From positions 1 to 40,686 of the forward strand of contig CAZGRF010000001.1 in the NCBI GenBank assembly GCA_964527825.1: a stretch of DNA of 40,686 nucleotides, written 5' to 3'. Origin of the DNA: an uncultured Pirellulales bacterium (lineage in GTDB: Bacteria; Planctomycetota; Phycisphaerae; Sedimentisphaerales; Anaerobacaceae). This document shows positions 1-33,262 of the stretch, one piece after another. The stretch's first letter is position 1; every line of letters begins with the position of its first letter. Under the pieces are notes generated by a model. That model made no database searches. It was given only the letters and a program-made list of their open reading frames with translations, and was not told the origin of the DNA. Position numbers and translations under genes: made by a program.

Positions 1-1
1 A

Positions 2-496
2 CACGCTCCATCCGGCTCGACGGTTGCACTGTTGGGTCTGGCCTACAAGCCAGGCACGCATGTTGCGGAAGAGTCTCAGCCTGTGATTTTGGCGGAAAGG
101 CTTCTGGATGCCGGCTATGTCGTCCGAATGCATGACCCTAAGGCGGCCGAGGGCGCCTCTGCGATACTGCAAGGGCGGGGAGTATTCTGCAACGATCCTT
201 ACGATGCGGCGTCGGGCGCTGCCGTGGTTGTGCTGCTGACGAACTGGCCTGAATACGAGCACTTGGACATCGAACGGCTGGAGAAGAAGGCAGGTTCATC
301 AGCGCTGCTGATAGATTGCTGGCGCGCCTACAAGAACGTCTCATTCAAGAGATTCGCGTACCGGCCGTTCGGCTCCTGGATGCGATCCTCCGGGGAAACA
401 AGACATGACTCTCGTTCAGACATTTCCTACCAAGACAATAGACGACGTGCGCCGGTATTGGAACGCGCGGCCCTGCAACATTCGGCACTCACCTGA
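2..496 (+). CDS. UDP-glucose/GDP-mannose 6-dehydrogenase family protein, C-terminal part (5' end outside window)
   Basis: The frame is open from the window edge (..TVALLGLAYKPGTHVAEESQP..). This is the LGLAFKxxT-type start of the sugar-nucleotide dehydrogenase C-terminal domain. It is followed by AVVVLLTNWPEY..LIDCWR. The tail after ..YRPFG is longer than expected and overlaps the next gene by 92 nt. Confidence 0.65.
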   Translation, partial: HAPSGSTVALLGLAYKPGTHVAEESQPVILAERLLDAGYVVRMHDPKAAEGASAILQGRGVFCNDPYDAASGAAVVVLLTNWPEYEHLDIERLEKKAGSSALLIDCWRAYKNVSFKRFAYRPFGSWMRSSGETRHDSRSDISYQDNRRRAPVLERAALQHSALT

Positions 497-1247
497 GCAA
501 GTAGGCACGCGGGAGTACTTCGATCAGGTAGAGGCCCGGAAGTACTTCGTGGAGCCGCACATACCACAGTTTGCCGAGTTTGCACGGTGGAACGGGAAGA
601 AGGTCCTGGAGATAGGTTGCGGTATCGGTACCGACACGATCAATTTTGCCCGGGCAGGAGCCCACGTCACGGCCGTAGACGTCTCGGACGAGTCCCTCGC
701 GGTCGCAGAGCAACGCGCTGCCGTCTTTGGCTTGGAGGATCGTATTACGTTCTACCGAGCCGATGCAGAACGATTGTCCCAGACGGTTCCGGTCGAGACC
801 TATGACTTGGTCTACTCCTTCGGCGTGATTCACCATACCCCTCATCCACAAGAGGCCCTCCAGGAGGTAGCCAGGTACATGGGGCCCGAGAGCGTGCTTA
901 GGATGATGGTTTACAGCCGCCATTCCTGGAAAGTTCTCTGGATATTGGTCAAGTACGGAAAGCTGGCGTTCTGGAAACTGGACGAGCTTATCGCGCGTTA
1001 CTCGGAGGCCCAGACGGGCTGTCCCGTCACGTACAGCTACTCCCGCCGGACCGTGCTGGATCTGCTCGAAGGATTCGCCGTGCGACGAATGATGGTGGAC
1101 CACATCTTCCCCTATCGCATCCCTGAGTACAAGCGCTACGAATACAAGAAGGTCTGGTACTTCGACGTGTTGCCTCAGAGCGTCTTCCGCAGGCTGGAGA
1201 AGACCCTCGGCTGGCACCTGTGTGTGGAGGCGACTCTGAATGCCTGA
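405..1247 (+). CDS. Class I SAM-dependent methyltransferase
   Basis: ATG at 405. Motif I VLEIGCGIGTDTINFA is followed by the acidic loop VTAVDVSDE, and there is a post-motif YSFGVIHHTP. 280 aa. Confidence 0.8.
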   Translation: MTLVQTFPTKTIDDVRRYWNARPCNIRHSPEQVGTREYFDQVEARKYFVEPHIPQFAEFARWNGKKVLEIGCGIGTDTINFARAGAHVTAVDVSDESLAVAEQRAAVFGLEDRITFYRADAERLSQTVPVETYDLVYSFGVIHHTPHPQEALQEVARYMGPESVLRMMVYSRHSWKVLWILVKYGKLAFWKLDELIARYSEAQTGCPVTYSYSRRTVLDLLEGFAVRRMMVDHIFPYRIPEYKRYEYKKVWYFDVLPQSVFRRLEKTLGWHLCVEATLNA

Positions 1248-1983
1248 TCGCAAGCACGACAACTCGCTGTATCCTGTCGAAGCGATGATCCTGGCCGGCG
1301 GCAAAGGAGCCCGGCTGCGCAGCGCCGTCAGGGACCGGCCCAAACCCATGGCTGAAGTAGCAGGACGCCCATTCGTCGAATGGCTGCTGACGCTATTGCA
1401 CGACCAGGGAATCAGACGCGCGGTCTTGTGCACAGGGCATCTTGGCGAGCAGGTCGAAGCTCACTTTGGTGACGGTCGTCGATGGGACATGGAATTGCAC
1501 TACTCTCGCGATCCCTTCCCGCTGGGCACGGGCGGTGCGGTGCGTCACGCCCTCGACCGGATTCAAGGAGACCGATTCCTCGTGCTCAACGGGGACTCGT
1601 ACTGCCGGTTCGATCTCCAAGCACTGACCGATGTTCACATCGCAAACGGTGCTCAGGCGACGCTATGGCTGGTCGAAACGGGCGACTGTCGACGGTACGG
1701 GGCGGTGACTCTCCGCGAAGACGGCGCTGTGGAATCCTTCGCGGAGAAAGCATCCGACTTCGGGCGTGGGCTGGTCAGCGCCGGCGTCTATCTCATCGAG
1801 CAGGAGGCCGCGGAGACGATCCCTGTCGGTTGCTCAGTGTCCCTGGAGAAGGACTTCTTCCCGAGTCTGATCGGACGGGGGCTCTTCGCGGTGGCGGGAC
1901 AGGACGCGTTCATCGATATCGGCACGCCCGAGTCGTATGCCGAGGCTGGACGATTCATCACGGAAGAGGCAAACGCATGGTAG
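1240..1983 (+). CDS. Sugar-1-phosphate nucleotidyltransferase (HddC/ManC-like guanylyltransferase type)
   Basis: The N-terminal signature is MILAGGKGARLRS..RPKPM, followed by PLGTGGAV, LVLNGDSY and FIDIGTPESY. It overlaps the upstream stop by 8 nt. Confidence 0.8.
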   Translation: MPDRKHDNSLYPVEAMILAGGKGARLRSAVRDRPKPMAEVAGRPFVEWLLTLLHDQGIRRAVLCTGHLGEQVEAHFGDGRRWDMELHYSRDPFPLGTGGAVRHALDRIQGDRFLVLNGDSYCRFDLQALTDVHIANGAQATLWLVETGDCRRYGAVTLREDGAVESFAEKASDFGRGLVSAGVYLIEQEAAETIPVGCSVSLEKDFFPSLIGRGLFAVAGQDAFIDIGTPESYAEAGRFITEEANAW

Positions 1984-3005
1984 AAACGCGAAAGACAAGA
2001 GCACTGATTACGGGCATCACCGGTATGGTCGGTTCGCACTTGACCGACTACCTGCTGGAGAATACCGATTGGGACATCTACGGCATGTGCCGCTGGCGGA
2101 GTCCTTTGGACAACGTGCAACATCTTCTGGACAGGGCCAACCGGCAAGACCGCTTGTTCTTCATTCATGGCGACCTGTGCGATTCCATCTCACTTCAGGG
2201 AGCTATCCAAGAGAGCTTGCCTGACTACGTATTTCATCTCGCGGCTCAGAGCTATCCGACTACGAGTTTCACATCGCCAATCGCGACACTCGACACCAAT
2301 ATCCTGGGCACGACAAGGCTTCTCGAGGCGATTCGTCATTGTCGAGACATCGACCCGGTGATCCATGTGTGCGCGTCTTCGGAGGTGTTCGGTCGGGTCA
2401 GTCGGGACAAGCTCCCTATCGGCGAGGAGTGTGCCTTCCATCCGGCTTCGCCCTATGCGATCTCGAAAGCGGGAACCGATCTCGTCGGCCGCTTCTACGC
2501 GGAAGCCTATCAGATGAAAGTGATGACGACGCGCATGTTCACGCACACGGGACCTCGCCGAGGCGACGTATTTGCCGAGTCGTCTTTTGCCAAGCAAATC
2601 GCGATGATCGAAGAAGGGCTGCTCCCGCCCGTGGTCAAGACTGGTAACCTGGGTTCCTTGAGGACTTGGTCCGATGTGCGCGATGCCGTGAGGGCATACT
2701 ATCTGTTGGTCACTATGAATCCTATCCCAGGTGCCTACTACAACATCGGCGGCACCTACCACTGCACCGTGGGTGACATGCTCCGGTATCTGATCTCCCT
2801 GTCGCCCCGAAAGAGCGACATCCGCGTGGAAACGGAAGCCACGCGGCTGCGGCCCTTGGATGCCGACCTGCAGGTGCCCGACACGACCAAGTTCCGTGAG
2901 CACACCGGCTGGGAGCCTGAAATTCCGTTCGCGGAAACCATGCAGGATCTGTTGACCTACTGGCGCGAGCGGATCGCGCAGGGATGCAAGTGTCTGTCCC
3001 GGTAA
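1977..3005 (+). CDS. GDP-mannose 4,6-dehydratase-family extended SDR (GMD/Rmd/heptose-dehydratase-like)
   Basis: An internal ATG at 1977 overlaps the upstream stop (ATGGTAG). The longer 1482 start only shadows the previous gene. Motifs are Rossmann LITGITGMVGSHL, catalytic SPYAISK (YxxxK), and THTGPRRG and GNLGSLRTWSDVRD, which resemble NHESPRRG / GNxDSxRDW of GMD enzymes. Confidence 0.8.
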   Translation: MVETRKTRALITGITGMVGSHLTDYLLENTDWDIYGMCRWRSPLDNVQHLLDRANRQDRLFFIHGDLCDSISLQGAIQESLPDYVFHLAAQSYPTTSFTSPIATLDTNILGTTRLLEAIRHCRDIDPVIHVCASSEVFGRVSRDKLPIGEECAFHPASPYAISKAGTDLVGRFYAEAYQMKVMTTRMFTHTGPRRGDVFAESSFAKQIAMIEEGLLPPVVKTGNLGSLRTWSDVRDAVRAYYLLVTMNPIPGAYYNIGGTYHCTVGDMLRYLISLSPRKSDIRVETEATRLRPLDADLQVPDTTKFREHTGWEPEIPFAETMQDLLTYWRERIAQGCKCLSR

Positions 3006-3014
3006 GGCAAGGTT

Positions 3015-4022
3015 ATGAACGACGGCACACAACTGGTTGACTCTCAATGCGTCGATACTTCACTGCCTCAGACGAAACTGCATCTGGAGCTCTACCGGAC
3101 GATGTACCTGATTCGAGCGGCCGAGTTACTGATCCAGGAGCACTATGACGAAGACGAGATGAAGACCCCCATGCACATGTCGATGGGCCAAGAGGCTATC
3201 GTCGCCGGCGTTTGCTACGCGCTGAACCCTCAAGACCAGGTGCTGGGCACTTACAGGAGCCACGGTCTCTACTTGGCCAAGACCCAGGAAACGGACCGGT
3301 TCTTCGCGGAGATGTACGGGAAGGCATCCGGCCCCTGCGGTGGCAGGGCCGGCTCGATGCATCTACTTGCTCCAGAATCCGGCTTGATCTGCACCTCTGC
3401 TATCGTGGCCGGCCATATTCCCGTCGCGATCGGTGCTGCGTTCGCCAACAAGTTCACAGGCAGTGACCGAGTCGTGGCGGTCTTTTTCGGTGACGGCGCA
3501 GTCGACGAAGGAGCCTTTTGGGAAAGCTTCAACATGGCGTGCCTGAAGCGACTGCCGATTCTCTTCGTGTGTGAGGACAACGGATACGCTGTCCATACGC
3601 CGGCCGGCGAACGCCACGGGTACAAGGACATCCGAGCCATCGCCGCCCAGTTCGACTGCAACGTGTTTGCCAGTGACTCGACGGACGTACACGTCATCTA
3701 CGAACTGGCCCGAGAGGCATTGACGGTGATGGCCGATAGCGAACGGCCGTGCTTCCTGCATCTGAAGTACTACCGCTATCTTGAACACGTCGGCGTCAAT
3801 GAAGACTTCAAGGCGGGCTATCGATCCCGCGCGGAGTTCGAGGCGTGGCAGCGCGTCGATCCGTTACGCCTCCAGCGTGCGCGGCTGGCTTCCACGGTTT
3901 CAGAGGAAGACATCTGCGATCTGGAGACAGCGGTGGACAGGCAGGTGCAACGCAGCAAGGAGAAGGCCCAGGCGGCGTCCTTCCCAGATGTATCGACTCT
4001 GTGCGAGGGGGTGTCGGTATGA
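3015..4022 (+). CDS. Thiamine-diphosphate-dependent 2-oxoacid dehydrogenase E1 component, alpha subunit-like
   Basis: Motifs are MHMSMGQEAI, YRSHG, GGRAGSMH and the TPP motif FFGDGAVDEGAFWESFNMA..LFVCEDNGYA. ATG at 3015 with an AAGG upstream. Confidence 0.85.
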   Translation: MNDGTQLVDSQCVDTSLPQTKLHLELYRTMYLIRAAELLIQEHYDEDEMKTPMHMSMGQEAIVAGVCYALNPQDQVLGTYRSHGLYLAKTQETDRFFAEMYGKASGPCGGRAGSMHLLAPESGLICTSAIVAGHIPVAIGAAFANKFTGSDRVVAVFFGDGAVDEGAFWESFNMACLKRLPILFVCEDNGYAVHTPAGERHGYKDIRAIAAQFDCNVFASDSTDVHVIYELAREALTVMADSERPCFLHLKYYRYLEHVGVNEDFKAGYRSRAEFEAWQRVDPLRLQRARLASTVSEEDICDLETAVDRQVQRSKEKAQAASFPDVSTLCEGVSV

Positions 4023-5059
4023 GTTGTGTGATGACATCGCGGGATGCCATCAATGAGGCTATCGCTTCGGAAATGCGACGGGACCCCAGCGTGTTCGTCT
4101 ATGGCATCGACGTGGCCGATCACAAGCGTATCTTCGGGAGCAGCCGGGGGCTGGTCGAGGAGTTCGGACCGGATCGGTGCTTCAGCACACCGCTGTCTGA
4201 AGACGCGATGGCCGGTTTCGGCCTGGGCGCTGCCCTGAACGGACTGCGGCCGATTCACGTGCACATGCGCGTCGATTTCATGATCCTGGCTATGAATCAG
4301 ATCACGAACATAATCGCCAGCTTCAGCTACGGGGCCGGCGGACTCAAGGTGCCAATCGTGATCCGCGCCATCATCGGACGTGGGTGGGGACAGTCCTGGC
4401 AGCATAGCAAAACGCTCCACTCGTGGTTTGCTCATGTCCCGGGGTTGAAAGTCGTCATGCCCGCGCGGGCTCGTGACGCACGCGATATGATGATCGCCGC
4501 TATTCGCGATGACAACCCAGTCATCTGCATCGAACACCGCTGGCTCTACGACGTCACGGGCGAAGTGCCCGACGAGATCGATCCGGATGCCCTTGTTGGC
4601 TGTCGCGTCGTGCGCGACGGGACGGATGTCACCGTTGTAGCGGTCTCGTGGATGGTGATCGAAGCCTTGAAGGCGGCCGAGGTCCTGGCCGAGCGCGGGG
4701 TGGACGTGGAAGTGATTGACGTTCGATCCATCGCGCCCTACGACAGCGCGACAGTGGCAGACTCCGTGCGGAAAACAGGCCATGCCGTCGTCGCGGACTA
4801 CGATTGGATTCACTGTGGCTTCGGAGCGGAAGTCGCTGCGCGAATCTACGAAGAGTGCATGGCCGGACTATACTCTCCCGTGACACGGCTGGGCTTTGCC
4901 GAGGCCCACTGTCCCTGCACGCGGCCGCTGGAAAACGCGTACTACCCGAATGCCATCGACATCATCCGAGCCATCGAGAGAAAACTCGATCTGTCCGAAG
5001 CGGACCTGACCGGCGAAGAATTCTATTCTTATGAGAAGAAATTCAAGGGACCGTTTTGA
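4019..5059 (+). CDS. 2-oxoacid dehydrogenase E1 component, beta subunit-like
   Basis: ATG at 4019 forms an ATGA overlap with the alpha-subunit stop. Motifs are INEAIASEMRRDPSVFVYG.D, FSTPLSEDAMAGFGLGAALNGLRP, and a C-terminal transketolase-C-like part (DVTVVAVSWMV..VDVEVIDVRSIAPYD). Confidence 0.85.
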   Translation: MSCVMTSRDAINEAIASEMRRDPSVFVYGIDVADHKRIFGSSRGLVEEFGPDRCFSTPLSEDAMAGFGLGAALNGLRPIHVHMRVDFMILAMNQITNIIASFSYGAGGLKVPIVIRAIIGRGWGQSWQHSKTLHSWFAHVPGLKVVMPARARDARDMMIAAIRDDNPVICIEHRWLYDVTGEVPDEIDPDALVGCRVVRDGTDVTVVAVSWMVIEALKAAEVLAERGVDVEVIDVRSIAPYDSATVADSVRKTGHAVVADYDWIHCGFGAEVAARIYEECMAGLYSPVTRLGFAEAHCPCTRPLENAYYPNAIDIIRAIERKLDLSEADLTGEEFYSYEKKFKGPF

Positions 5060-5107
5060 GGCACGATCCATGTCCTGGGGACACCGGCCGAGATAGAGAC
5101 TCGAACC

Positions 5108-5974
5108 ATGGACGTACGAATGATGAAGGCCAAAGCAGCCGAGCTGAGGCTGCGGGTTATGGAGGCGGCCCTCAGCGCCGGAAAGGGGCACGTGGCTCCT
5201 GCGTTCTCCTGGGTGGAGATTGCCGTCGCCCTATTCTATGCCGGAATCTTGAGGATGGATCCCCATGACCCAACATGGCCGGCCCGGGACCGTTTCATCT
5301 TGAGCAAGGGACATGGTTGCCTGACGCTGTACACCGTTCTTGCTGACCTCGGCTTCTTGCAGCGCGATGCGCTGGAGGGCTTCTGCCGGGACGGGAGCAT
5401 TCTGGCCGGACATCCCGATACCAACATCCCGGGCGTGGAGGCCATTTCCGGCTCGCTCGGCCACGGGCTCGGCGTTGGGGCCGGTCTGGCGTTGGGCGGC
5501 CGGCTTGACCGTGAGCACTGGATGGTCTTTGTGCTCTTGGGCGATGGAGAATGTGACGAGGGTTCGATCTGGGAAGCTGCCATGTTTGCTGGGCACCACC
5601 GGCTCGACAACCTCGTGGCCATCGTAGACCGAAACCGCCTTAGCGCGACAGACTTCACCGAGAACATCCTCACCCTGGAGCCCTTGGCACACCGCTGGAA
5701 AGCCTTCGGATGGGACGTTGTATCTGTCGACGGTCACTCCTTCGAGGACTTGGTCGAGGTCTTCTCCCAAGTACGCCATCGTTCGTCCCTGAAGCCATTG
5801 GCCGTGATTGCCAATACGATCAAGGGCAGAGGTGTCAGTTTCATGGAGGTATCTCCGAATTGGCATCACCGCCTTCCCAAGGGCGACGAGGTTCAGGCCG
5901 CATTGCAGGAACTGCATGTAGTGTTGAAAGAGGCTGAAGACCAGATGATCAGGGAGCATTGCGATGCAGGCTGA
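5108..5974 (+). CDS. Transketolase, N-terminal (TPP/PP-binding) subunit
   Basis: Motifs are GKGHVAPAFSWVEI, LSKGHGCLTLY, GSLGHGLGVGAGLAL and LLGDGECDEGSIWEAAMFAGHHRLDNLVAIVDRN. Confidence 0.85.
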   Translation: MDVRMMKAKAAELRLRVMEAALSAGKGHVAPAFSWVEIAVALFYAGILRMDPHDPTWPARDRFILSKGHGCLTLYTVLADLGFLQRDALEGFCRDGSILAGHPDTNIPGVEAISGSLGHGLGVGAGLALGGRLDREHWMVFVLLGDGECDEGSIWEAAMFAGHHRLDNLVAIVDRNRLSATDFTENILTLEPLAHRWKAFGWDVVSVDGHSFEDLVEVFSQVRHRSSLKPLAVIANTIKGRGVSFMEVSPNWHHRLPKGDEVQAALQELHVVLKEAEDQMIREHCDAG

Positions 5975-6902
5975 TTTTCGAGATGCCGTCTTCTTGAGTG
6001 TTCGCACGCTGATGGAACAGGATGAGAGAATCTTCGTCCTCTGCAATGACATGGGGGCGATGGAATTGGACCGCATTCGCAGCGACTACCCGCAGCGCGT
6101 CATCAACGTGGGGATCTGCGAGCAGAATATGGCCAGCGTTGCTGCCGGATTGGCGTTGACGCACCGCCGGGTCTTCGTTTATGGCATTATCGCGCACGTG
6201 TTCTCGCGGGGCTTCGAACAGATCCGAAACGACATCTGTCTGCCGAATCTTCCGGTCGTGATTCTCGGTGTCGGCAGCGGTCTGTCCTATGGTGGTGACG
6301 GGCCGACCCATCACGGTGTTGAAGACATCGCCGTGATGCGCACTCTACCCCACATGGCGATCTACAACCCGGCGGATTGCGCCTCCGCCGGCGCTCTGAC
6401 GAGAGAGGCAGCCGAGCGCCACGGGCCCGGCTACGTGCGTCTGGACAAAGAGCAGTTGCCGCAGATTTACAGCACAGAAACGAGTTTCAGCGCGGGATTC
6501 GAGGTCCTTCACGAGGGACAAGATGTCGCCTTGGTTGCTACCGGCGTGATCGTTCACCGGGCGCTGAGGGTGGCTCGGTCACTCGCCGCAGAGGGCATCG
6601 GCGTGCGTGTGGTGGATGTCTACCGTCTCAAACCGGTAAACACGATCGGGTTGACAGAGGTTCTCAGCAATGTCGATTCCGTTGTCACGCTGGAAGAGAA
6701 CTCCTCGGTGGGTGGGCTTGGTCAAATCGTCGGCGATCTGCTGGCGCGAGATGCTCATCAACCCAGGTTCACCAGTCTCAATCTGGGCGACCAGGCGCTG
6801 ATGAGCGCGGCCACCAGATCATGGGCAGAGCAGCGTTTTGGCTTGAGCGACGAGGCCGTGGCCGGAGTCCTGCGCGACATGGCTGAGGGGGTCGAAGCAT
6901 GA
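5964..6902 (+). CDS. Transketolase, C-terminal (Pyr + TK-C) subunit
   Basis: Motifs are NVGICEQNMASVAAGLA and GDGPTHHGVEDIAVMRTLP, with a C-terminal VVDVYRLKP. It overlaps the N-terminal subunit gene by 11 nt. Confidence 0.85.
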   Translation: MQADFRDAVFLSVRTLMEQDERIFVLCNDMGAMELDRIRSDYPQRVINVGICEQNMASVAAGLALTHRRVFVYGIIAHVFSRGFEQIRNDICLPNLPVVILGVGSGLSYGGDGPTHHGVEDIAVMRTLPHMAIYNPADCASAGALTREAAERHGPGYVRLDKEQLPQIYSTETSFSAGFEVLHEGQDVALVATGVIVHRALRVARSLAAEGIGVRVVDVYRLKPVNTIGLTEVLSNVDSVVTLEENSSVGGLGQIVGDLLARDAHQPRFTSLNLGDQALMSAATRSWAEQRFGLSDEAVAGVLRDMAEGVEA

Positions 6903-7882: not shown

Positions 7883-7897
7883 CACGGGTGGAGTCGC

Positions 7898-8680: not shown

Positions 8681-8696
8681 ACTGTGGAGCGTGCCG

Positions 8697-11050: not shown

Positions 11051-11061
11051 GAGCAGGTTCC

Positions 11062-12246: not shown

Positions 12247-12318
12247 TCGTACGGTGATGGCGCGATCTGACGGTGCGTGCCGTGATTCCAGGTTCTTCGT
12301 TTTGAAGAAGGCTAACCG

Positions 12319-13833: not shown

Positions 13834-13844
13834 TCGAGGAAACG

Positions 13845-14795: not shown

Positions 14796-14944
14796 TTGTT
14801 ACCCATACGTCGTCCAAGATTCCCCGCCCCGATGTCGAAGCGTCCCGCCAGTCGGCTAAGGGGTCCGTCGTGGCTGAGCTTCACAGGGACGCTCCTGATT
14901 CGAGTTCGTTTGCAGAGAGCCGTCGGATCGTACAGGGCCACCCG

Positions 14945-15934: not shown

Positions 15935-15941
15935 CTCTCCT

Positions 15942-18900: not shown

Positions 18901-21900
18901 TCGCCATCGACAAAGAGGAATTGGCCGCCTGCAAATGTGACGAGGCGTTGGTGGTTCTGCGAAATCTGCTTTCGCTGGTGCAGCGTAAGTCTCCGCAGGT
19001 GGAGTCTCTGGATCGTGTCGTCATCGCTCAGCGATACGTGAGCTGCCATACACTGTTGGCCCAGTGCTACCAGAAGATGGGACGCTACGATCAGGTCGCG
19101 GCGACCTACACGCGGCTTCTGAAGAATCCTTTCGTGCAGATCCCGCAAGCTGCGCGAGATGATATAGCCCGATTGCGGGATCAGGCTGCGTGTTTCTCAC
19201 GTGAGAAGCGGCTTTCGACAGGTTCGCAGGGTGGTTCAGAACACCGGGACATCAGGCTGGGGGTGGTCCAGACGCAGAACATGACACCGTCACAGGGCGA
19301 AAGCCGGTTGGCCCCGGCGCTTCGGAGTGCGGGCGATCCTGAACCTGCGGCCTCGTGCGCATCCGGTCTGCATGCTGCTGATCATCGGCCGAAAGTCACG
19401 GTGATCACAGCGTGCTGGAACAGTGAAGAACACTTGCCGGAATGTCTTGATAGCATTCTGGGTCAGACCATGCCGGATTGGGAGCTGTTTCTGCTCGACG
19501 ATGGCAGCACAGACGGCACGCGACACATCATTGAGGAGTATGCTCGCCGCGATGCACGGATCAAGGCTCATTGCTTTGACGACAACCGAGGGCCCTACGT
19601 TCGGCGGAACTTTGCCATCGAACGAGCCAGTTCTGATTTCATCGTGATTCAGGACGCCGACGACATGATGTGTCCCGACAAGCTGGAGCGGCTCTACCGC
19701 GCCATCATGCAAGACCAACGACTGGGCGTTGTCGGTTCTTTCTACCTCATGTTCCTCGAATGGTACCAGGGGCCGGAGCACGCAGATGAGGTGACTCTGA
19801 AGACCACGCACGAACAGATTCTCCAAGACTATCGTGATTGTGCCATATGCGATTATTCCTGGCATGGTTCCGCCATCATCCGGAAACGCCTGTTCGAAGA
19901 GATCGGTCTCTATGATGAGAATCCCTTCAGTTCGGATTCCTTCTGGTTGGCCAAAATGGCTGAACTCGCATGTCGTAGCGACGGGATTCGGTTGAAGAAC
20001 ATTTCCGAGTTCCTGACTTTGCGAAGAATGCGGGCGGATTCACAAACGGGCAGTCTGCCCTCATTCGATCCGCGCAGCCGGCGGGCCAAGTTCCGCGATT
20101 ACCGCCGGAGTATGCTGTCCGAGGTGATGCAGAGACTCGACGTGGACCCGAGCGCCGATGTCAAGGCGGAACTGCGCAAGTCCGTCTGCAATGATTTCGT
20201 CGCGCGCAACGGTCATCTCTTTGATTCTTGGGAAGGCCAGCCGCTGACGAATCAAACCGTGGGTCGTTTTATCAGTAGAATCTACACGCAGTTCTGCTTG
20301 GGGCAATTCGTGCGCTGTATCAACACATGCGGCATCGTGGAGCGCTTGGTTGAGGGGGTGGCACAGATGATGCCCTGTTACGACCTAACCCGGGGTCTGG
20401 CGTACTTCGCACTTGGTTTGCCGCAAAAGGGCAAAGAGCATCTTGAACGAGAGTACCGCAGGCACGGCACCATTGCCGCCAGGGATTTCTGCTGGCAGTA
20501 CATCGATGCGGACACGGCCGAATGGACCAAAGCCCAGCGAGTCGAGATCATCCGTCGAGCCATTTTCGACGGCGTATCGAACGAGACATCCATGGCCCTG
20601 GCGCGCGACGGTCTAACGTGCTTGTGGGACCGTCGCGGTGGTCGCTCGCCAGAACTGTCGCTTGTTGTTGAGTTCAACGAGAATCCGACTCAATGCTATG
20701 AACGGCTTGTGGCGCTGAACGAGCAGAACGAGAAGACCTTCGAAGTCGTCGCACTGGCCTCCACGGAGAGCTCACAGGCTTTGAGAGAAGCGGCGAGCAA
20801 GGTCGATTTCGATGTGGTACTGCTGACGGCAGAGGGCGATATCAGTCGATGGCGCCGACGGAACCTTGCCGCCGGGTACGGCCGAGGGCGGTTCGTGGCG
20901 TTCCTGGACCAGTGCGTATGGCCCGAACGCGACTTCGTGCAAGCCGTTCTGCAGGCATTTCGGGAGAATGAGATCGATGGCCTCAGAGGCAAGATCGTCG
21001 CATTCTCTGGCGGTGACTTGCCCGTCTACTGTGATTTGGGAGACATCCCGATCTATGCGGCCTGTGACACGGACCAGATGTGTGTGTTCCGAAAGGATGT
21101 CTTCACGAGCCTTGGCGGTTTCTTGGAGACGCCGTTCAGCCGAGGAGCCATTGTCCTTTCGTACCTGATATACACAAGTGAGCAGGTGGAAAGACGCCCG
21201 ATTCTCTACTGTCCGAACGTCGTGGTCCGAAGAGTTGTCGAGCCCAAACGCTGCTTCGGATTGTTCGATCCGTACGCGATGGAGAATCGGTTCTGCACCG
21301 AGCGGCTCAGCCGGTTGATCGATCCGCAGACCAGAGACGAGCAGGAGATCGCGGTCTTCTTGAGATTCGTCGAAAGCCTGTATGCTGCTGGAGAAGGCAC
21401 GGAGGATGAGCGATACGAGCGGGCCCTGAGCAACAGTCTGTTCTTTCTGAACAGATTCCCGCGTATTGCGTTGGAGTGGGCCCAGAAGGCGCTGGCGGAG
21501 CGTCAGAATTCAATCAGGGCCAAGTGTTTAGTCGGTCTCTCGAGCGCCACTATGAGTCAGCCTGACCAGGCTTGCGCGTTTCTCAGTGAGGTTGTTGATC
21601 CGTTGGAGCGGCTGTTGGCTGCCGGCCGAGTGGATCGTTCGCAATGCGAATTCGACGACTACGCTTGTTTGCCGGGTCTTTACATATCCACCTGCACGCT
21701 GCTGGCTCAGTCCCTCATGAAGATGGGGCGGCACGAACAGGTCGCTGCGACCTACACACGTCTTTTGGCGAACCGCAACGTGTGCCTCTCCGAGACCCGG
21801 AGGAATGACATGGAACGGTTGCGTGACCGACTGCTCGCGGTCTGCGGAGCCAACACCAGTCATGACGCGATATCAGGGCAGCGACCGAACTCCCAGGCGG

Positions 21901-24491
21901 CGCAGGTCCGCGAACGCCCTGCGGCATCGTCAGTTGAACGAACAGCGGAGACTGTCGATGATATCGAACCTGCTACTCCGCACGCGCACGCCTTGGCCGA
22001 GTTTGAATGCAAATACAGATCCATGCCCAATCGTGCGCCGGCAAAGCATGTTGCGGCTGTCCGGCTGTCCGAGCTCTGCCGCCGGATGGGGCAGGCCGAA
22101 AAGGCTAACGCGTACGCCATCCAGGCCTTGAAGATCAAGAACAACGTTGCATTCGAGGACGCTAAGCGGCGCAAGCCGAGCGTCTGCAACCACAAGCCTA
22201 CCATCGTGGAATTCAACGTCATCACACGGTGCAATGCCGGCTGTATCATGTGCAATTATGGACCGCAGGGGAAGACCCTAGAATTGGACCAATTCAAACG
22301 CTTGGCCGATGAACTGCTCCCGACGGCGCAGAGGACTCTCTTGATCGGCGGAGAGGTGCTGCTCCACCCCGATTTCTACGCGATGTGCGAGTATACCAGC
22401 CGCTTTGGTGTTTGTCTGGAGATGACGACCAACCTGTCTACTCTCGCCGGCAATCGAGCCGAGGCCATTCGACGGTTCTTTGGTTCGGTCCGAGTCTCCA
22501 TCGACGGGGCCACCAAGCAAACGTATGAATCGATACGAACGCATCTGAGCTTCGACAGGCTACAGGAGAACCTTCGGAAGCTGGCCGAGATCAAGCGGCA
22601 GAGACCCGATCTGGCACTCCAGTTGGCGTTTGCCGCGATGAGGCAGAACATTGTCGAGCTTCCCGACACGATCGAGATGGTGGCGCGATTCGGTTTTGAC
22701 AGTGTGGCCGTCAGCTTCGTGCACGTCCATGCCAGGTTGACGCTCGATGACTCGTTGGTCTTCCACCGGGAGGAGGCGAACCGTTACTTCGACCTGGCTC
22801 GACAGAGGGCCGCGGCATTGGGACTGCGACTTGACATCCCCAACAACTTCGATCTGAGCCGACAGCCGTTTCTTGCTCCTGAGAGACTGAGCGATGGACA
22901 CAAGCAGTGTGTCAGGCCGTGGCAGCGGGTCAGAGTACACATCAACGGCGATATCATACCTTGCTGCCGTCTGTACGGCCTACCCATGGGCAACGCCTTT
23001 GCAGAGCCGTTCGAGCGGACCTGGAACGGCCCGAAATACGAGGGCCTCAGGGAAGCCATTGCCAACAGCAGCGATTGCCTGCCGGCGGAATGCAAGCACT
23101 GTGAGCTAATCACTGGGCCGACGGATTCGAATGACGCGTTGTTACACATCAATTCGAGTTGTCTGCCTGAACTGAAGAAACGCCTTGAAGAGCGTCCATC
23201 CGAGCAGCGAACCGGTGCTGTCGCCTGTGGATCAGGCGGTGTCCGTCGTCCCAAAGTCACCGTCGTCACAGCGTGCCGCAACGGCGAGCGGTTCCTGGCG
23301 GAATCGTTGGAGAGTGTCCGCAATCAGAGCCTGCAGGAATGGGAGTTGCTTCTACTCGATGACGCCAGCACGGATGGGACGCGACGCATCATCGAGGAAT
23401 ACGCGCGTCGAGACCCTCGTATCAAGCCGTTCTATTTCGATGTTAGCGCAGGACCCTACGTCAGACGCAATTTCGCGATCGAACGAGCTGACTCCGACTT
23501 CATTGTCATCCACGATTCCGACGATCTCATGATGCCGACCAAGCTGGAGAGGTTGCACAATGAGATCAGCAGGGACAGCCGTCTGGCGATGGTAGGTTCC
23601 TTCTACCGTACCTTCTTCGAGGATTTCAAGGGTATCCAGTACACGGATCCGATCGAGTTGCCTACTACACACGAGGAGATCACGCAGAAGTCGCTGACAT
23701 GGCAGCATGGAGTCAGTCACATCTCGGCAATCATCCGAAAGTCGATGTTTGACTGCATCGGAGGCTACGATGAGAATCCCTTTGCTTCCGATGCTTTCTG
23801 GTCCGCGAAGCTTGCCGAATGCTCCCGGCACAGCTCCAATGCACGCGTTAGGAACATCCCCGAATATCTGACCCTGTACAGGGTGCACAACGATAGTCAG
23901 ACGCAGGTCCTCTCCATGTTCGACCCGCGTAACAGGAGGGTCCGATACCGCAGCTACTGTGAGTGCAAACTGGAACGAATCCGGGAGAAAATGCGGTCTG
24001 TGCCTGAGACGGATATCGCCCGCGAGCTCCGGAATTGCACGTGTTCCGATTTCTTGATGCGCTTCAAGGCCCATATCATCCGGTGGGAGAATGAGCCGCT
24101 CGATCGGCGTGTGACTGACGATCTATTGCGGGGTGCCGTCGGAGCGTTCAATGGAGGGTATCACGTCAGTTGTGTCAATATTCTCCACGGCACTGAAGTC
24201 ATGGAGCCTGCGATCTCCAGACGCATCATGGGCTTTGACTTGCTCAGAGGCATGGCCCTCTTCGCTTTGGACATGAGGGCCCGGAGCATGGAATGCCTGC
24301 AGAAGGAGATTCAGAATCATGACAACTCGGCGGCGCGGAAGTTCATGACCGACGCCTCTGCGGCAGAGGCACAGATCGACGTGTTGACGTGGTGCCAGGA
24401 GAACGCCGGGCAGCACGATCTGGGCTTGCGTACCGCTGAGTCCGTCGTGTCTCGGGGTACTGCCCCCTGTGCGGGCGCAGCGCGAAAATAG
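15942..24491 (+). CDS. Giant multidomain glycosylation protein (~2850 aa): several GT2/GT-A modules + CmcI-like methyltransferase + TPR-like linkers + radical SAM/twitch-SPASM module
   Basis: One uninterrupted frame runs for 8.7 kb. Candidate starts are ATG 15942, 15972 and 15987, the last with GAGG 8 nt upstream. Recognisable in-frame modules are:
- GT2 at ~16010-16650
- CmcI-like MTase (VIVEIGTLGGLS) at ~16970-17650
- GT-A-like module (IFALPKPFAGDIATIQKNAIRSW...) at ~18050-18690
- GT2 (VITACWNSEEHL..LLDDGSTDGT..QDADD) at ~19390-19950
- degenerate GT-like module at ~20657-21200
- radical SAM (CNAGCIMC at 22230-22253) plus Cys-rich twitch/SPASM at 22908-23105
- GT2 (VVTACRNGERFL..LLDDASTDGT..HDSDD) at ~23245-23800. 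Confidence 0.85.
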   Translation: MGPGAEVRVSMRCEVMSVDKSTPMFSIFSAIKNVESREAMFRRCIESVLNQTFGDLECVIQDGGSADRTADIVAEYQDPRIRFLSVPDSCGEEGFFRALQRCRGTYIGSCLSDEELLPDALENARRAFEDHPQVAAFYGNVCYVNEKGEKWGPRIPPHPFSIEAYVCQTLVPPFCSSFFRREAVEKAGLHEHHWRYGIGEFEFWVRIAGAGGIIYLPFNISHFGRHSQSNTRSVGVYDQLLAGREGVMRDLFRENTILRECSVSVEQAIAGNYVWGASGVFNIEGLSRKCEYFMQQAERYDPGSPQLARLRSRVYKAAPPRLTTDSTCSAAVRKDSSLPPSGEFARWLKVLSSMDNRLYYRDQSPQTLAALCSLAHDFEPTVIVEIGTLGGLSLRTWLAGTERARIVAVDLSFAKLTQTRRVLPLDLSRVTLLEQDILKTDFSTLWTAQDRVVLFVDAHDLPNVPIMQHVLTKALPCLPEGSLVIVDDLWFSEQRLTRENAGAFLENHVVGEIDELQCFNGHYAPHHAGGSFMGFAEVIPLLEFVNRHGITLVHDREDKHACFTWKREYLSQNQGRVGQGPVEPDECWGAVLYNPLESVPVSGPLREMVSRIATVYSQGKTRQVAESLQQLFGQHPHDQGLCYALAVCLARLGMLSQAKDVLVGGSTDSNHPRYQRLLDDLVERVEPSGSHRSQELRPPADERGLTIFALPKPFAGDIATIQKNAIRSWARLRPMPEIILFGDEPGTRQMAEEIGARHVPEISRNEFGTPLVDKLFQAAQDHASHTVMAYVNADMILFQDFVEGVRTVQTGLSSFLLIGQRWDVSIFDEIDFDRPEWQQTLERRMEEQAMIHPESGLDYFVFRKGLWPTIPPFAIGRTVWDNWLAMDPHRRGVPVVDGTECITAVHQDHDYGHMAGGRQEAWTGVEAAQNRALAGATDGSGRTSGATCALKKGGVLVKVKPHKSWCSTTVYKDERSAWLLKQANGLVAIDKEELAACKCDEALVVLRNLLSLVQRKSPQVESLDRVVIAQRYVSCHTLLAQCYQKMGRYDQVAATYTRLLKNPFVQIPQAARDDIARLRDQAACFSREKRLSTGSQGGSEHRDIRLGVVQTQNMTPSQGESRLAPALRSAGDPEPAASCASGLHAADHRPKVTVITACWNSEEHLPECLDSILGQTMPDWELFLLDDGSTDGTRHIIEEYARRDARIKAHCFDDNRGPYVRRNFAIERASSDFIVIQDADDMMCPDKLERLYRAIMQDQRLGVVGSFYLMFLEWYQGPEHADEVTLKTTHEQILQDYRDCAICDYSWHGSAIIRKRLFEEIGLYDENPFSSDSFWLAKMAELACRSDGIRLKNISEFLTLRRMRADSQTGSLPSFDPRSRRAKFRDYRRSMLSEVMQRLDVDPSADVKAELRKSVCNDFVARNGHLFDSWEGQPLTNQTVGRFISRIYTQFCLGQFVRCINTCGIVERLVEGVAQMMPCYDLTRGLAYFALGLPQKGKEHLEREYRRHGTIAARDFCWQYIDADTAEWTKAQRVEIIRRAIFDGVSNETSMALARDGLTCLWDRRGGRSPELSLVVEFNENPTQCYERLVALNEQNEKTFEVVALASTESSQALREAASKVDFDVVLLTAEGDISRWRRRNLAAGYGRGRFVAFLDQCVWPERDFVQAVLQAFRENEIDGLRGKIVAFSGGDLPVYCDLGDIPIYAACDTDQMCVFRKDVFTSLGGFLETPFSRGAIVLSYLIYTSEQVERRPILYCPNVVVRRVVEPKRCFGLFDPYAMENRFCTERLSRLIDPQTRDEQEIAVFLRFVESLYAAGEGTEDERYERALSNSLFFLNRFPRIALEWAQKALAERQNSIRAKCLVGLSSATMSQPDQACAFLSEVVDPLERLLAAGRVDRSQCEFDDYACLPGLYISTCTLLAQSLMKMGRHEQVAATYTRLLANRNVCLSETRRNDMERLRDRLLAVCGANTSHDAISGQRPNSQAAQVRERPAASSVERTAETVDDIEPATPHAHALAEFECKYRSMPNRAPAKHVAAVRLSELCRRMGQAEKANAYAIQALKIKNNVAFEDAKRRKPSVCNHKPTIVEFNVITRCNAGCIMCNYGPQGKTLELDQFKRLADELLPTAQRTLLIGGEVLLHPDFYAMCEYTSRFGVCLEMTTNLSTLAGNRAEAIRRFFGSVRVSIDGATKQTYESIRTHLSFDRLQENLRKLAEIKRQRPDLALQLAFAAMRQNIVELPDTIEMVARFGFDSVAVSFVHVHARLTLDDSLVFHREEANRYFDLARQRAAALGLRLDIPNNFDLSRQPFLAPERLSDGHKQCVRPWQRVRVHINGDIIPCCRLYGLPMGNAFAEPFERTWNGPKYEGLREAIANSSDCLPAECKHCELITGPTDSNDALLHINSSCLPELKKRLEERPSEQRTGAVACGSGGVRRPKVTVVTACRNGERFLAESLESVRNQSLQEWELLLLDDASTDGTRRIIEEYARRDPRIKPFYFDVSAGPYVRRNFAIERADSDFIVIHDSDDLMMPTKLERLHNEISRDSRLAMVGSFYRTFFEDFKGIQYTDPIELPTTHEEITQKSLTWQHGVSHISAIIRKSMFDCIGGYDENPFASDAFWSAKLAECSRHSSNARVRNIPEYLTLYRVHNDSQTQVLSMFDPRNRRVRYRSYCECKLERIREKMRSVPETDIARELRNCTCSDFLMRFKAHIIRWENEPLDRRVTDDLLRGAVGAFNGGYHVSCVNILHGTEVMEPAISRRIMGFDLLRGMALFALDMRARSMECLQKEIQNHDNSAARKFMTDASAAEAQIDVLTWCQENAGQHDLGLRTAESVVSRGTAPCAGAARK

Positions 24492-24502
24492 GGCCATCCA
24501 GC

Positions 24503-24530
24503 CTTTAGGAACAGAGCAGTTTGAACGATA
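24503..24530 (+). promoter_or_regulatory. Possible sigma-28 (FliA)-type promoter upstream of fliD
   Basis: AACGATAA at 24523-24530 resembles the GCCGATAA -10 element. A weak TTAG lies 15 nt upstream where TAAA is expected. The site is 80 nt upstream of the fliD ATG. Weak match. Confidence 0.25.
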
Positions 24531-24610
24531 ATCATAGTGGACTCGTGTGTTCGAAGGGTCTTGCACAGGTCCAGGCATGTCATTTCGACGAGGTTGAAAG
24601 GTAGATCAGA

Positions 24611-26947
24611 ATGGGCGAATTGCGGCTTCCAGGACTCGCAACGGGCATCGACACCAGCGCGCTGATTAGCCAGCTCATGGCGATCGAGAGACGGACACTC
24701 AACAAATACGTAGAACGCAAGAACACCTGGGAGGAGCGTAGGGATGCCCTGAGCAGCCTCACGACCAAGCTTGAGACACTGAAGAGCACAGTCGCGGCTC
24801 TCTCTGATGCCAGTACGCTTCGCGCCTACACGACGGTCTCCAGCGACTCGGACATCCTGACGGCCGAAGCGTCCAACAATGCGTTTGAGGGCAATCACAC
24901 GGTTGTCATCAACCAGTTGGCCAATGCGGAACGCTGGGTGCACACGACTGGCGAGAAGTACGCGGAAGACTACGTCGGGGAAGGGACCTTCATCTACGCC
25001 TACAACCGCCAGGAGGTTGTTATTACCACCACGGCCGACACCACTCTGGAGGAGCTCACCGGGCTAATCAACAACGATGCGAACAATCCCGGAGTCACGG
25101 CCAATCTGCTTTACTACAACGATGCCTATCACCTCGTTCTCAATGGTAATGATGCCGGCTCGGACTACGAGATCGGGATCAACGCCAGCAATACGGAAGT
25201 CTGGCAGATGACATCGTCGTTCACCGACGGGGGCGAGAACGCGGCCCTGGCCACGAAGATCATGGATCTCGATCAGTTCAGCGGCACGTTTGCCGGCGAC
25301 GAATCCATCACCATTAGCGGCCAGCAGCACGACGGGACGGCCGTGAGCCACGAGTTCTCGATAAATGCGAACACCAAGCTCGATCATCTCGTCGAGGAGA
25401 TCAACGACGCCTTCGGCGGCACGGCCACGGCAACACTGGTCCACGGCCAGATTCGTCTGACCGATCACACCAACGGCACGAGCCAGATGCAGTTGAGCCT
25501 GACCTACAATCCGGGCTCCGGCTCCACGACGCTTGATATTCCCACCATTAGCCAGTCCACCGAGGGCGGCAGCGTGACCGCCGACCTGACGGATTATGCC
25601 GCATCCGATTTCTTAGAGACCCAGGCAGCGCAAGACTCCAAGATTCGCGTGGATGGTTATCCTCCACAGACTGGAGAAGTGCAGCTTCTGACGACGACTC
25701 AAGCCGCGAACAACGGCACCTTTACTTTGACATACGAGGGCCAGACGACCGCTCCAATTGACCATGATGCAGACGCGGAGACGATACAGGCTGCCCTGGA
25801 GGCCTTGTCTACAATCAATGCCGGCGATGTCACGGTCTCGGGCAATGGGCCATCGGAGCTCGGAGACACGACGTTCGCCTTCCTGGAGACTCTCGGCAAT
25901 GTCAGCCAGATTACCATTGACGCGAGTAACCTCACCCCGGGCAGCCCGTCGGAGTACACCATGTCTACCCAAACCGAAGGCGACCTCGGTTGGATTAGCA
26001 GAAGCTCGAACACAGTCGACAACGTGCTTCAGGGCGTGGCCCTGCATCTGCACGATACCGGCACCGTTCAGGTGAACCTGACCCGTGACATCGAGTCGGT
26101 TAAACAGAAGTTGACCTCCATGGTTGATGCGTACAACGCGGTGATGACATTCATCAAGGAGAAGACTGCCTACATGGAGGAAACCAAAACGGCCGGCGTC
26201 TTGATGAGCGATTCTACGGTATCAAGGATCAATAATGACATGCGCATGCCGTTGATACGACAGACAAGCGGCTTTGTCGTTGATGTCGACAGCTTTCTCA
26301 TGCCGGGTGAGATTGGTCTTGAGCTTGATGGTGAGGGCGTGCTAAACCTGGACACCAGCGCCTTCAACGACGCGATTGCGGAAGACTACATGGGTGTACT
26401 GGCTATCATTGGGGCGGACAAAACCGGCAGTTCCGACAGCAATACGATCAAGTTCTACGGGGCCTCGAGCAAGTACACCACAGGCGGAACATACAATGTG
26501 CAGGTGACGGTCTCCGGCGGGGCGATCACGAGCGCTCAGATGAAGCTGTCCACCGAATCGACCTATCGCGATGCGACCTTCAGCGGGAACATTGTCACGG
26601 GTGAGAGCACCTTCAACAGCAACGGCAATGCCGTATATCCTGAGAACGGCCTGCAGCTCAGCATTGACCTCAGTCAGAACGGGACGTTCACCGCCACGGT
26701 TCGCGTCAAACAGGGCTGTGCGGGCGCGATGGAGGACACGCTTGATCGCTTCCTGAAATCTACGACCGGCTGGCTTGGCTTGGATGAAGAATCCGTCGAA
26801 ACGCAAATCGAGAATCTGGAGGATCGAATTGCCATCGAGGAAGACCGCCTCTCCCGACATGAAGATCGGCTGGTGGCGAAATATGCTCGGTTGGAGAAGA
26901 CCCTGACCTTACTCCAGAATCAGATGGCTGCACTGGGGCTGTCTTGA
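24611..26947 (+). CDS. fliD: Flagellar filament cap protein (hook-associated protein 2), long form
   Basis: The N-terminus is LPGLATGIDTSALISQLMAIERRTLNKY. The C-terminal coiled coil is ..IENLEDRIAIEEDRLSRHEDRLVAKYARLEKTLTLLQNQMAAL. At 778 aa it is much longer than the ~470-aa enterobacterial form. Confidence 0.9.
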   Translation: MGELRLPGLATGIDTSALISQLMAIERRTLNKYVERKNTWEERRDALSSLTTKLETLKSTVAALSDASTLRAYTTVSSDSDILTAEASNNAFEGNHTVVINQLANAERWVHTTGEKYAEDYVGEGTFIYAYNRQEVVITTTADTTLEELTGLINNDANNPGVTANLLYYNDAYHLVLNGNDAGSDYEIGINASNTEVWQMTSSFTDGGENAALATKIMDLDQFSGTFAGDESITISGQQHDGTAVSHEFSINANTKLDHLVEEINDAFGGTATATLVHGQIRLTDHTNGTSQMQLSLTYNPGSGSTTLDIPTISQSTEGGSVTADLTDYAASDFLETQAAQDSKIRVDGYPPQTGEVQLLTTTQAANNGTFTLTYEGQTTAPIDHDADAETIQAALEALSTINAGDVTVSGNGPSELGDTTFAFLETLGNVSQITIDASNLTPGSPSEYTMSTQTEGDLGWISRSSNTVDNVLQGVALHLHDTGTVQVNLTRDIESVKQKLTSMVDAYNAVMTFIKEKTAYMEETKTAGVLMSDSTVSRINNDMRMPLIRQTSGFVVDVDSFLMPGEIGLELDGEGVLNLDTSAFNDAIAEDYMGVLAIIGADKTGSSDSNTIKFYGASSKYTTGGTYNVQVTVSGGAITSAQMKLSTESTYRDATFSGNIVTGESTFNSNGNAVYPENGLQLSIDLSQNGTFTATVRVKQGCAGAMEDTLDRFLKSTTGWLGLDEESVETQIENLEDRIAIEEDRLSRHEDRLVAKYARLEKTLTLLQNQMAALGLS

Positions 26948-33258: not shown

Positions 33259-33262
33259 AGAC

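Follow-up and report, generated by a model that had tools for sequence, protein, structure and literature searches.

We analysed contig CAZGRF010000001.1 (assembly GCA_964527825.1) as a single window of 40,686 nucleotides (nt), which is one entire contig of a Sedimentisphaerales-like Planctomycete (class Phycisphaerae). On its + strand, 18 open reading frames (ORFs) for sugar synthesis, sugar tailoring and glycosyl transfer (2–24491), here called the island, are followed on the same strand by fliD, the gene for the flagellar filament cap protein; on the − strand, a 13-kb flagellar operon converges on fliD. An earlier reading of the sequence (the original prediction) had proposed that this arrangement is a candidate flagellar glycosylation island. 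We examined the proposal using Pfam and NCBIfam profile searches of the window proteins, structure prediction and comparison with related genomes. G+C content was 58% throughout the window, and uniform between the island and the flagellar genes.

Together with fliD, the island forms a run of 19 co-directional + strand genes that are densely packed or overlapping. Clear family matches were found for 17 of the 18 island ORFs, the exception being 6899–7882, which gave sub-threshold methyltransferase matches only. Every − strand ORF within 2–24491 overlaps + strand genes, and these look like shadow ORFs, as is usual in DNA of 58% G+C. With the gene starts chosen in the present analysis, intergenic distances run from −92 to +72 nt, the widest gaps being 72 nt (12247–12318), 52 nt (15935–15986, given a giant-gene start at 15987) and 48 nt (5060–5107); stop and start codons overlap as ATGA at 4019, 6899, 9713 and 14792, and as ATGGTAG at 1977. 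The original prediction had described co-directionality up to 24491, gaps of 0–73 nt, all of these overlaps except that at 14792, and fliD lying 119 nt past the last glycan gene on the same strand and convergent with flhB; the overlaps proved exact, and the co-directionality, tight packing and fliD placement were as described. Its figure of 24.5 kb is correct as the visible span but not as the full size of the island: the window’s left edge cuts the first island gene, a dehydrogenase, and the left part of the island is lost, so that 24.5 kb is a lower bound on island length.

The sugar-pathway genes, all on the + strand, begin with the 3′ part of this UDP-glucose/GDP-mannose dehydrogenase gene (2–496; UDPG_MGDP_dh_C, 1.8e-21), whose full-length orthologue holds the same place in relatives. 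Next is a class I S-adenosylmethionine (SAM) methyltransferase (405–1247; Methyltransf_31/25/11). The 120 matches listed for it span several phyla and, one at 100% excepted, are 65–86% identical; its gene invariably accompanies those of the dehydrogenase and of the core glycosyltransferase described below. The dehydrogenase and methyltransferase frames overlap by 74–92 nt in the window (405–496) and in two relatives (locus L081, 18997–19088; locus L082, 19065–19138); the overlap may be real, or the methyltransferase (called products of 266–291 amino acids) may start at a later codon. There follow a guanylyltransferase-like sugar-1-phosphate nucleotidyltransferase (1240–1983; NTP_transferase, 1.5e-34), for which the best NCBIfam models, mannose-1-phosphate guanylyltransferase and HddC, both scored below cut-off (HddC, 140 bits against 300), and a Gmd-like nucleoside diphosphate (NDP)-sugar 4,6-dehydratase (1977–3005; GDP_Man_Dehyd, 4e-72; gmd, 164 bits, below cut-off).

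Two gene pairs encode thiamine-type enzymes. The first comprises thiamine-diphosphate E1 alpha and E1 beta (3015–4022 and 4019–5059; E1_dh, 2.8e-49; Transket_pyr and Transketolase_C, ~1e-30), a putative system for two-carbon transfer onto a keto-sugar; the second is a split transketolase-like pair of N and C parts (5108–5974 and 5964–6902; Transketolase_N, 3e-41; Transket_pyr, 2e-32), similar to a pair found in the islands of relatives. Downstream of them lie the weak methyltransferase-like gene (6899–7882; Methyltransf_25, 6e-5, below cut-off; no NCBIfam match), a short-chain dehydrogenase/reductase (SDR; 7898–8680; adh_short_C2, 3.6e-48) and an Fcl-like NAD-dependent sugar epimerase/reductase (8634–9716; Epimerase, 1.5e-40; GDP-L-fucose synthase model, 119 bits, below cut-off). 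Of two radical SAM enzymes, one is of the B12-binding type and methyltransferase-like (9713–11050; Radical_SAM, 3e-16, with weak B12-binding and with PhpK-family and HpnJ-like matches below cut-off), and the other is of the SPASM/twitch type (11062–12246; Radical_SAM, 9e-16; SPASM, 5e-8; N_Twi_rSAM, 87.6 bits, below cut-off). In the latter, the SPASM/twitch region (residues 16–81) precedes the radical SAM core (133–279), the reverse of the usual order.

A compact block then encodes an Fcl-like reductase (12319–13314), an RmlC-type 3,5-epimerase (13315–13833; dTDP_sugar_isom, 2.9e-47; rmlC, 150 bits, cut-off 156) and a second Fcl-like reductase (13845–14795), the two reductases matching the Epimerase family with E-values of 5e-49 and 2e-48; it is common to loci L001, L009, L010 and L019 at 64–92% identity. 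The last of the small genes encodes an HddA-like GHMP sugar kinase (14792–15934; GHMP_kinases_N/C; HddA model, 141 bits, cut-off 600). By family, the radical SAM enzymes and methyltransferases are candidates for C- or O-methylation, and the dehydrogenase points to a hexuronic acid.

The rest of the island is one gene (15987–24491, +) for a giant soluble multi-module glycosyltransferase (GT) of 2,834 amino acids; the start at 15987 matches the called protein and its orthologue, and a start at 15942 would give 2,849 amino acids. Pfam searches of the whole protein and of its segments placed GT2 domains at 16041–16499, 19398–19904 and 23259–23759, a Methyltransf_24-like domain at 17091–17405, a radical SAM domain at 22215–22592 with SPASM at 22908–23105, and four tetratricopeptide repeat (TPR) stretches, including 17790–17975, 19044–19127 and 21690–22145. 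Between these, 18024–18845 matched no Pfam family and no PDB sequence; its AlphaFold2 model (predicted local distance difference test (pLDDT) score, 91.6) matched GT-A glycosyltransferases in the PDB with a probability of 1.0, a template modelling (TM) score of ~0.5 and at most 16% identity. Domains of this type also stand alone in cyanobacteria (Moorena), Chloroflexi and Pirellulales. A further, divergent GT-A-like domain (20712–21641), modelled with a pLDDT of 64, shows GT2-type fold matches and a CDxD motif, and we tentatively count it as the fifth GT-A module. A hydropathy scan found no transmembrane segment in the giant protein.

A 738-residue core (16971–19184), comprising the methyltransferase-like region, TPRs and the new GT-A domain, is the signature of the family; of 80 homologues of the giant protein, 74 have it. 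Alignment of the homologues showed the motifs YVNAD, HQxHxxxH and GRxxWDNW to be invariant in the core/GT-A domain; against PDB sequences, only the TPR part of the core was matched, an N-terminal O-methyltransferase match being non-significant (E = 0.05). The homologues are 1,600–4,100 amino acids long and 45–85% identical over the shared core, and occur in Sedimentisphaerales and other Phycisphaerae, including the cultured Anaerobaca lacustris. An assembly or frame artefact was rejected for the giant gene, which is stop-free over 8.5 kb and has full-length orthologues at 45–85% identity.

The original prediction had noted that the island’s enzymes differ from those of the pseudaminic and legionaminic acid pathways, and this was confirmed: no island product matched Maf or a NeuB/PseI-type synthase in Pfam or NCBIfam, and the highest scores were 31 bits for the PseB model (cut-off 408) and 130 for the LegB-like model (cut-off 475). 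A nonulosonic-acid/Maf system was rejected because these families gave no match. A hydropathy scan that detects FlhB, FliR, FliP and MotA showed no membrane-protein profile for any of the 18 island products, and Pfam and NCBIfam searches of the window, whose left edge is open, gave no match to Wzx, Wzy, an ABC transporter, a priming phosphoglycosyltransferase or an oligosaccharyltransferase/ligase. The complete islands of relatives likewise hold no flippase, polymerase, transporter, priming enzyme or ligase. An O-antigen, capsule or S-layer locus was rejected because membrane and priming components were missing, and the lack of export or lipid-carrier machinery argues for direct cytoplasmic transfer to protein. 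Cytoplasmic glycosylation is established for flagellins (PMC4065374, PMC7591256, PMC3958885).

The gene at which the island ends, fliD (24611–26947, +; FliD_N, 2e-22; FliD_C, 3e-34), encodes a 778-residue protein rich in Ser and Thr (23–29% in several 100-residue blocks). Residues ~358–461 (25682–25993) form a Thr/Ser/Gly-rich insertion of 104 residues that is missing from four orthologues (674–682 amino acids) and looks like an extra small domain. Residues 191–311 (25181–25543) are 35–37% identical over ~125–130 residues to the hook protein FlgE of relatives (L081, 2092–2454; L082, 2062–2451), a similarity that suggests a domain common to cap and hook.

The 119-nt spacer between the island and fliD carries a sigma-28 (FliA)-type promoter-like motif, TTTAGGA-N14-ACGATAA (24504–24531, +), with 79 nt between its end and the start codon of fliD. 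In the sigma-28 consensus, ~15 nt separate a −35-like element from the −10 element GCCGATAA, and such promoters lie upstream of late genes. The pattern matched once in the window, against 0.02 matches expected; in its strict form it gave one match per locus in 17 Phycisphaerae loci, each just upstream of fliD, and a CGATAA or CGATAG element is kept upstream of fliD in most of the remaining loci. No such motif was found at the island start or in the internal gaps of the island in the closest relative, GCA_016927855.1. A pattern scan found no terminator in the spacer, and its folding was no better than that of shuffled sequence (z = +0.99). By its promoter-like motif, fliD is a late gene with its own predicted sigma-28-type promoter; co-transcription with the island is therefore not required, and read-through is possible. 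The original prediction, which had inferred one long transcript and would have been contradicted by a clear terminator combined with a lack of co-expression with flagellar genes, is consistent with the spacer in that no terminator was found there, but a transcript reaching into fliD is not needed; that the island ends directly at fliD holds for position but is not shown for transcription.

With the aligned 738-residue core we scanned a set of genomes in which each GTDB species is represented once. Downstream of a giant-glycosyltransferase homologue, fliD on the same strand and then convergent flhB–fliR–fliP were found in 24 species-level Phycisphaerae/Sedimentisphaerales genomes and in A. lacustris. 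The adjacency of the operon to fliD, on which the original prediction relied, thus recurs in 25 other Phycisphaerae contigs, with differing sugar genes upstream. The four Planctomycetota loci without a fliD match (L015, L018, L035 and L054) all stop at a contig edge inside the island, one of them (L035) having flgK–flgL flanking its other side; in L083 the contig also ends within the island, so that the fliD end is not reached.

The left border of the island was visible in four genomes, in which the island abuts flgK (TIGR02492, above cut-off) and flgL (TIGR02550, above cut-off). A. lacustris and GCA_016927855.1, the latter being the closest long contig, share the order flgD, flgE, an unknown gene, flgF, flgG, flgA, flgH, flgI, an unknown gene, flgN, flgK, flgL. 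After flgL, all four relatives encode a ~500-residue protein with TPR and GT-B parts, a ~520-residue GT2, a ~209-residue TPR protein and a protein of 108–129 residues, this last with a weak Pfam match to FliT in three of the four genomes. Next come a radical SAM enzyme (two of the four genomes), the dehydrogenase, the methyltransferase, variable sugar genes, the giant glycosyltransferase and fliD. Wherever both ends can be seen in a Phycisphaerae genome, flgL and fliD bound the island on either side, all on one strand.

Within these fixed borders the gene content is exchanged. The window’s first four genes are in the same order as, and 75–91% identical to, their counterparts in GCA_016927855.1, and the two ends of the island (dehydrogenase and methyltransferase; core glycosyltransferase and fliD) are conserved, whereas the middle differs between genomes. 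The reductase–RmlC–reductase–kinase block occurs in some relatives only (64–92% identity) and the E1 pair in one only. Other relatives instead carry HldE-, GmhA- (SIS) and GmhB-like (HAD) genes and extra B12 radical SAM enzymes, further variable genes being those for a TPP_enzyme-family protein, an aldo-keto reductase and a TylF-type methyltransferase. Heptose genes (GmhA-, GmhB- and HldE-like) are present in the Anaerobaca island, and L083 has a GT9 heptosyltransferase-family module.

The window probably contains 24.5 kb from the right-hand side of a flagellar glycosylation island, lying within a co-directional flagellar super-cluster. It is embedded among flagellar structural genes (fliD and flhB…flgB on the right, and flgK–flgL on the left in four relatives); it combines sugar synthesis and tailoring with glycosyl transfer (17 sugar-pathway genes, plus five GT-A modules in one protein); its gene content varies at a fixed position; and, as far as the open left edge of the window allows, its machinery is purely cytoplasmic. 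The most likely function is the decoration of filament proteins with an unusual sugar chain, and we hold it probable that the island glycosylates flagellar filament proteins. The original proposal, with a filament protein as putative acceptor, is supported by the fixed position, the swapped sugar genes and the missing lipid-carrier and export machinery, as well as by the lack of a terminator before fliD.

In the mechanism that we propose, cytoplasmic enzymes would make at least two activated sugars. One would derive from UDP-glucuronic acid through the dehydrogenase, the conserved methyltransferase and the radical SAM enzyme encoded in relatives just past the window edge. The other would be an NDP-6-deoxy-hexose or -heptose, made by successive action of the GHMP kinase, nucleotidyltransferase, 4,6-dehydratase, RmlC-type epimerase and Fcl-type reductases; the two thiamine-dependent pairs may add two-carbon branches or extensions to it, and the SDR, the methyltransferases and the two radical SAM enzymes may change it further. 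The heptose genes and the GT9 module in relatives’ islands favour a heptose, but all HddA and HddC scores are far below cut-off, GmhA and GmhB are absent from the window, and the product could equally be a 6-deoxyhexose.

The five GT-A modules of the 2,834-residue enzyme would then build an oligosaccharide directly on Ser/Thr residues of a flagellar filament protein, most likely flagellin, before its export through the flagellar type III apparatus. The TPR segments would serve to bind the protein substrate or partner enzymes, and the methyltransferase-like and radical SAM modules would act on the chain as it grows. The first sugar would probably be added by the TPR and GT-B enzyme, FlmG-like in architecture, that relatives encode after flgL. 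Transcription of fliD would start at its own sigma-28 late promoter, possibly supplemented by read-through from the island.

Several observations weigh against the filament reading. A flagellin gene adjoining the island, as expected of flagellar glycosylation islands, was found neither in the window nor in the 84 loci fetched from relatives, which include ~49 kb of continuous Anaerobaca sequence. Pfam scans of the window gave no match to Flagellin_N or Flagellin_C, and fliS was likewise missing; in the Pfam annotation of eight loci, Flagellin_N fell on FlgL only. A tblastn search of all loci with the N- and C-terminal regions of Salmonella FliC returned nothing, even at E = 1, and the same probe also missed FlgL, which limits its sensitivity. 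The original prediction had already remarked on the lack of a fliS or flagellin partner beside fliD, which agrees with the Pfam and tblastn results and with the fliD–flhB spacer, structurally unremarkable and, at 238 nt, too short for fliS. The TPR and GT-B gene, of FlmG-like architecture, and the FliT-like gene lie outside the window, and none of the island’s sugar-pathway genes attained an NCBIfam equivalog cut-off, so that the chemistry is outlined only.

The distribution of the core also points away from an exclusively flagellar role. A cassette of radical SAM enzyme, UDP-glucose dehydrogenase, class I methyltransferase and 738-residue-core protein recurs in Phycisphaerae and Desulfobacterota (window, 2–1247; L076, 6548–15367; L077, 7300–15379; L084, 7451–13548; L079, 2693–17650). 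The Desulfobacterota cassette, at 40–47% identity, lies outside flagellar loci, in one case beside lptF/G and an ArnT-like gene, and that of Desulfovibrio adjoins a resolvase and an antitoxin gene (PhdYeFM). The full core also occurs in metagenome-assembled genomes labelled Haliangium and Bacteroidales, and the 18024–18845-type domain alone in cyanobacteria and Chloroflexi, so that the family is not flagellum-specific. The original prediction would have been contradicted by the same operon in O-antigen, capsule or S-layer loci unlinked to flagella; the Phycisphaerae keep the flagellar position, but the distant homologues of the core cassette in Desulfobacterota do not. The enzyme family is therefore general, and flagellar specificity in Phycisphaerae would come from the fixed position together with the TPR and GT-B and FliT-like genes. 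We regard as possible, with considerable doubt, a wider idea in which the giant protein works as an assembly-line glycan synthase, its five GT-A modules, methyltransferase-like module and radical SAM module in one soluble chain putting a defined oligosaccharide of exotic chemistry onto flagellar proteins in the cytoplasm. The 738-residue core with the radical SAM, UDP-glucose dehydrogenase and methyltransferase genes would then be a portable, widespread cassette for protein glycosylation, common to Desulfobacterota and to Phycisphaerae, in which it was recruited to the flagellum, and the GT-A domain of the core would represent an undescribed family.

These distribution data bear most directly on an alternative in which the island makes a general cell-envelope glycan, as a decoration of lipopolysaccharide or exopolysaccharide or of non-flagellar glycoproteins, and owes its place to an old, vertically inherited insertion, with export and attachment encoded elsewhere. 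The lptF/G and ArnT-like neighbours and the mobile-looking context of the Desulfobacterota cassette, the core or its GT-A domain in lineages usually without flagella, and the lack of a nearby flagellin gene are all as this alternative would have them. We nevertheless consider it unlikely, as position and strand between flgL and fliD have been held while the internal genes were replaced, a pattern that fits selection on flagellar function; the island also carries a FliT-like protein and an enzyme of FlmG-like architecture, and complete islands in relatives have no flippase, polymerase, transporter or priming enzyme.

A second alternative accepts a flagellar system and changes its main acceptor from flagellin to FliD, FlgK/FlgL or the hook. 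FliT is the chaperone of FliD in enterobacteria, and a FliT-like protein is encoded within the island, which is flanked by flgK–flgL and fliD rather than by flagellin; the Ser and Thr content of FliD is itself high, as given above. Against this, the FliT assignment consists of weak Pfam matches, an acceptor gene need not adjoin the island, and flagellin is the main glycosylated flagellar protein in characterised systems (PMC3958885), and we think such an acceptor rather improbable. That the island makes a glycosylated small molecule is very improbable: antibiotic sugar pathways typically contain E1 alpha/beta pairs, deoxysugar genes and B12-type radical SAM enzymes, and such genes in the island could, with its methyltransferase genes, be read as secondary-metabolite tailoring, but the window holds no polyketide synthase, non-ribosomal peptide synthetase, terpene, precursor peptide, exporter or resistance genes, and the fixed flagellar position would be left unexplained.

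The flagellar operon convergent to fliD (27186–40300, −) was assigned by Pfam and has the same order in relatives: flgB, flgC, fliE, fliF, fliG, fliH, fliI, fliJ, an unknown 238-residue gene, motA, a motB-like gene, motB, fliO, fliP, fliQ, fliR and flhB (27186–28268, −; Bac_export_2, 4e-112). The usual fliM and fliN genes are absent from it. The two adjacent MotB-type genes after motA (31032–31790 and 31787–32488, −) both encode the MotB plug, the OmpA-like peptidoglycan-binding domain being confined to the downstream gene, and the pair is kept in all relatives examined. Between motA and fliJ, the 238-residue gene (33263–33979, −) matched no Pfam or NCBIfam family, has one hydrophobic N-terminal segment and has a counterpart of the same size and position in every relative. 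A 166-residue ORF in the fliO–motB interval (30742–31242, −) overlaps the 3′ end of motB, has no family match, is not called in relatives and is probably not a gene. At the other end of the cluster, relatives have a sigma-54 activator divergently transcribed upstream of flgD, and a conserved 432-residue gene without a Pfam match lies between flgE and flgF (L081, 3253–4551; L082, 3249–4547).

Work on flagellin glycosylation is extensive for a few Proteobacteria, Campylobacterota and Firmicutes, and a full-text literature search found no report of it in Planctomycetes. If the filament reading is true, flagellin glycosylation extends to a new phylum and to environmental anaerobes, with a predicted glycan chemistry not seen on flagella, in which a deoxy-sugar undergoes carbon branching by thiamine-dependent enzymes and modification by radical SAM enzymes. 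A single protein chain that naturally carries five transferase modules would be useful for studying how sugar order is specified, the cassette that sulfate reducers also possess suggests a wider glycosylation system not yet described, and the same arrangement in cultured A. lacustris makes the prediction directly testable.

Among known systems, the flagellar glycosylation island of Pseudomonas aeruginosa is a polymorphic, flgL-bordered, replacement flexible island, and Pseudomonas glycans are non-nonulosonic, include deoxyhexoses and hexuronic acid, and have up to 11 residues (PMC3958885, PMC4033161). The a-type (PAK) island of P. aeruginosa and the fgt/vio island of P. syringae resemble the present one in placing a polymorphic sugar and glycosyltransferase block by flgL in the late flagellar cluster, and in their soluble cytoplasmic, non-nonulosonic machinery. 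In Pseudomonas, however, the flagellin gene follows the island, whereas here fliD follows and no flagellin is found at the locus; and, unlike in Pseudomonas, the transferases are fused in one 2,834-residue protein with embedded radical SAM and methyltransferase-like modules, thiamine-dependent and radical SAM tailoring comes in addition, and the phylum is different.

FlmG of Caulobacter crescentus joins an N-terminal TPR flagellin-binding domain to a C-terminal GT-B domain (PMC7591256). By architecture alone, its likeness is the ~500-residue protein encoded after flgL in relatives, outside the window; the giant protein also combines TPR and glycosyltransferase parts, but with GT-A rather than GT-B modules, and FlmG transfers pseudaminic acid, for which there is no pathway here. 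Maf-type systems modify flagellin in the cytoplasm before export (PMC4065374). Like the island, the Maf and pseudaminic/legionaminic acid systems of Campylobacter, Helicobacter, Aeromonas and Clostridium cluster strain-variable genes with flagellar genes; they differ in that no Maf domain, nonulosonic acid synthase or Pse/Leg enzymes are found here.

Fused transferases are known from WbdA/WbdD of Escherichia coli O9a and WsaE of Geobacillus, where several GT modules, and possibly a chain-capping methyltransferase, are joined in one soluble protein. These enzymes build on a carrier lipid and depend on priming, on an ABC transporter, and on either a ligase or an oligosaccharyltransferase; the giant protein is like them in its fused GT modules, but these lipid-carrier partners are absent here and from the complete islands of relatives. 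The GDP-heptose modification pathway of the Campylobacter jejuni capsule uses HddA, HddC, a 4,6-dehydratase, epimerases and reductases, and the island similarly has a GHMP kinase, a nucleotidyltransferase, a Gmd-like dehydratase, an RmlC-like epimerase and Fcl-like reductases in one block; it differs in its low model scores (HddA, 141 against 600; HddC, 140 against 300) and in the missing GmhA and GmhB. From all described islands, then, the island departs in four respects: its phylum, its right-hand neighbour (fliD in place of flagellin), the fusion of five transferases with tailoring modules, and its enzyme set.

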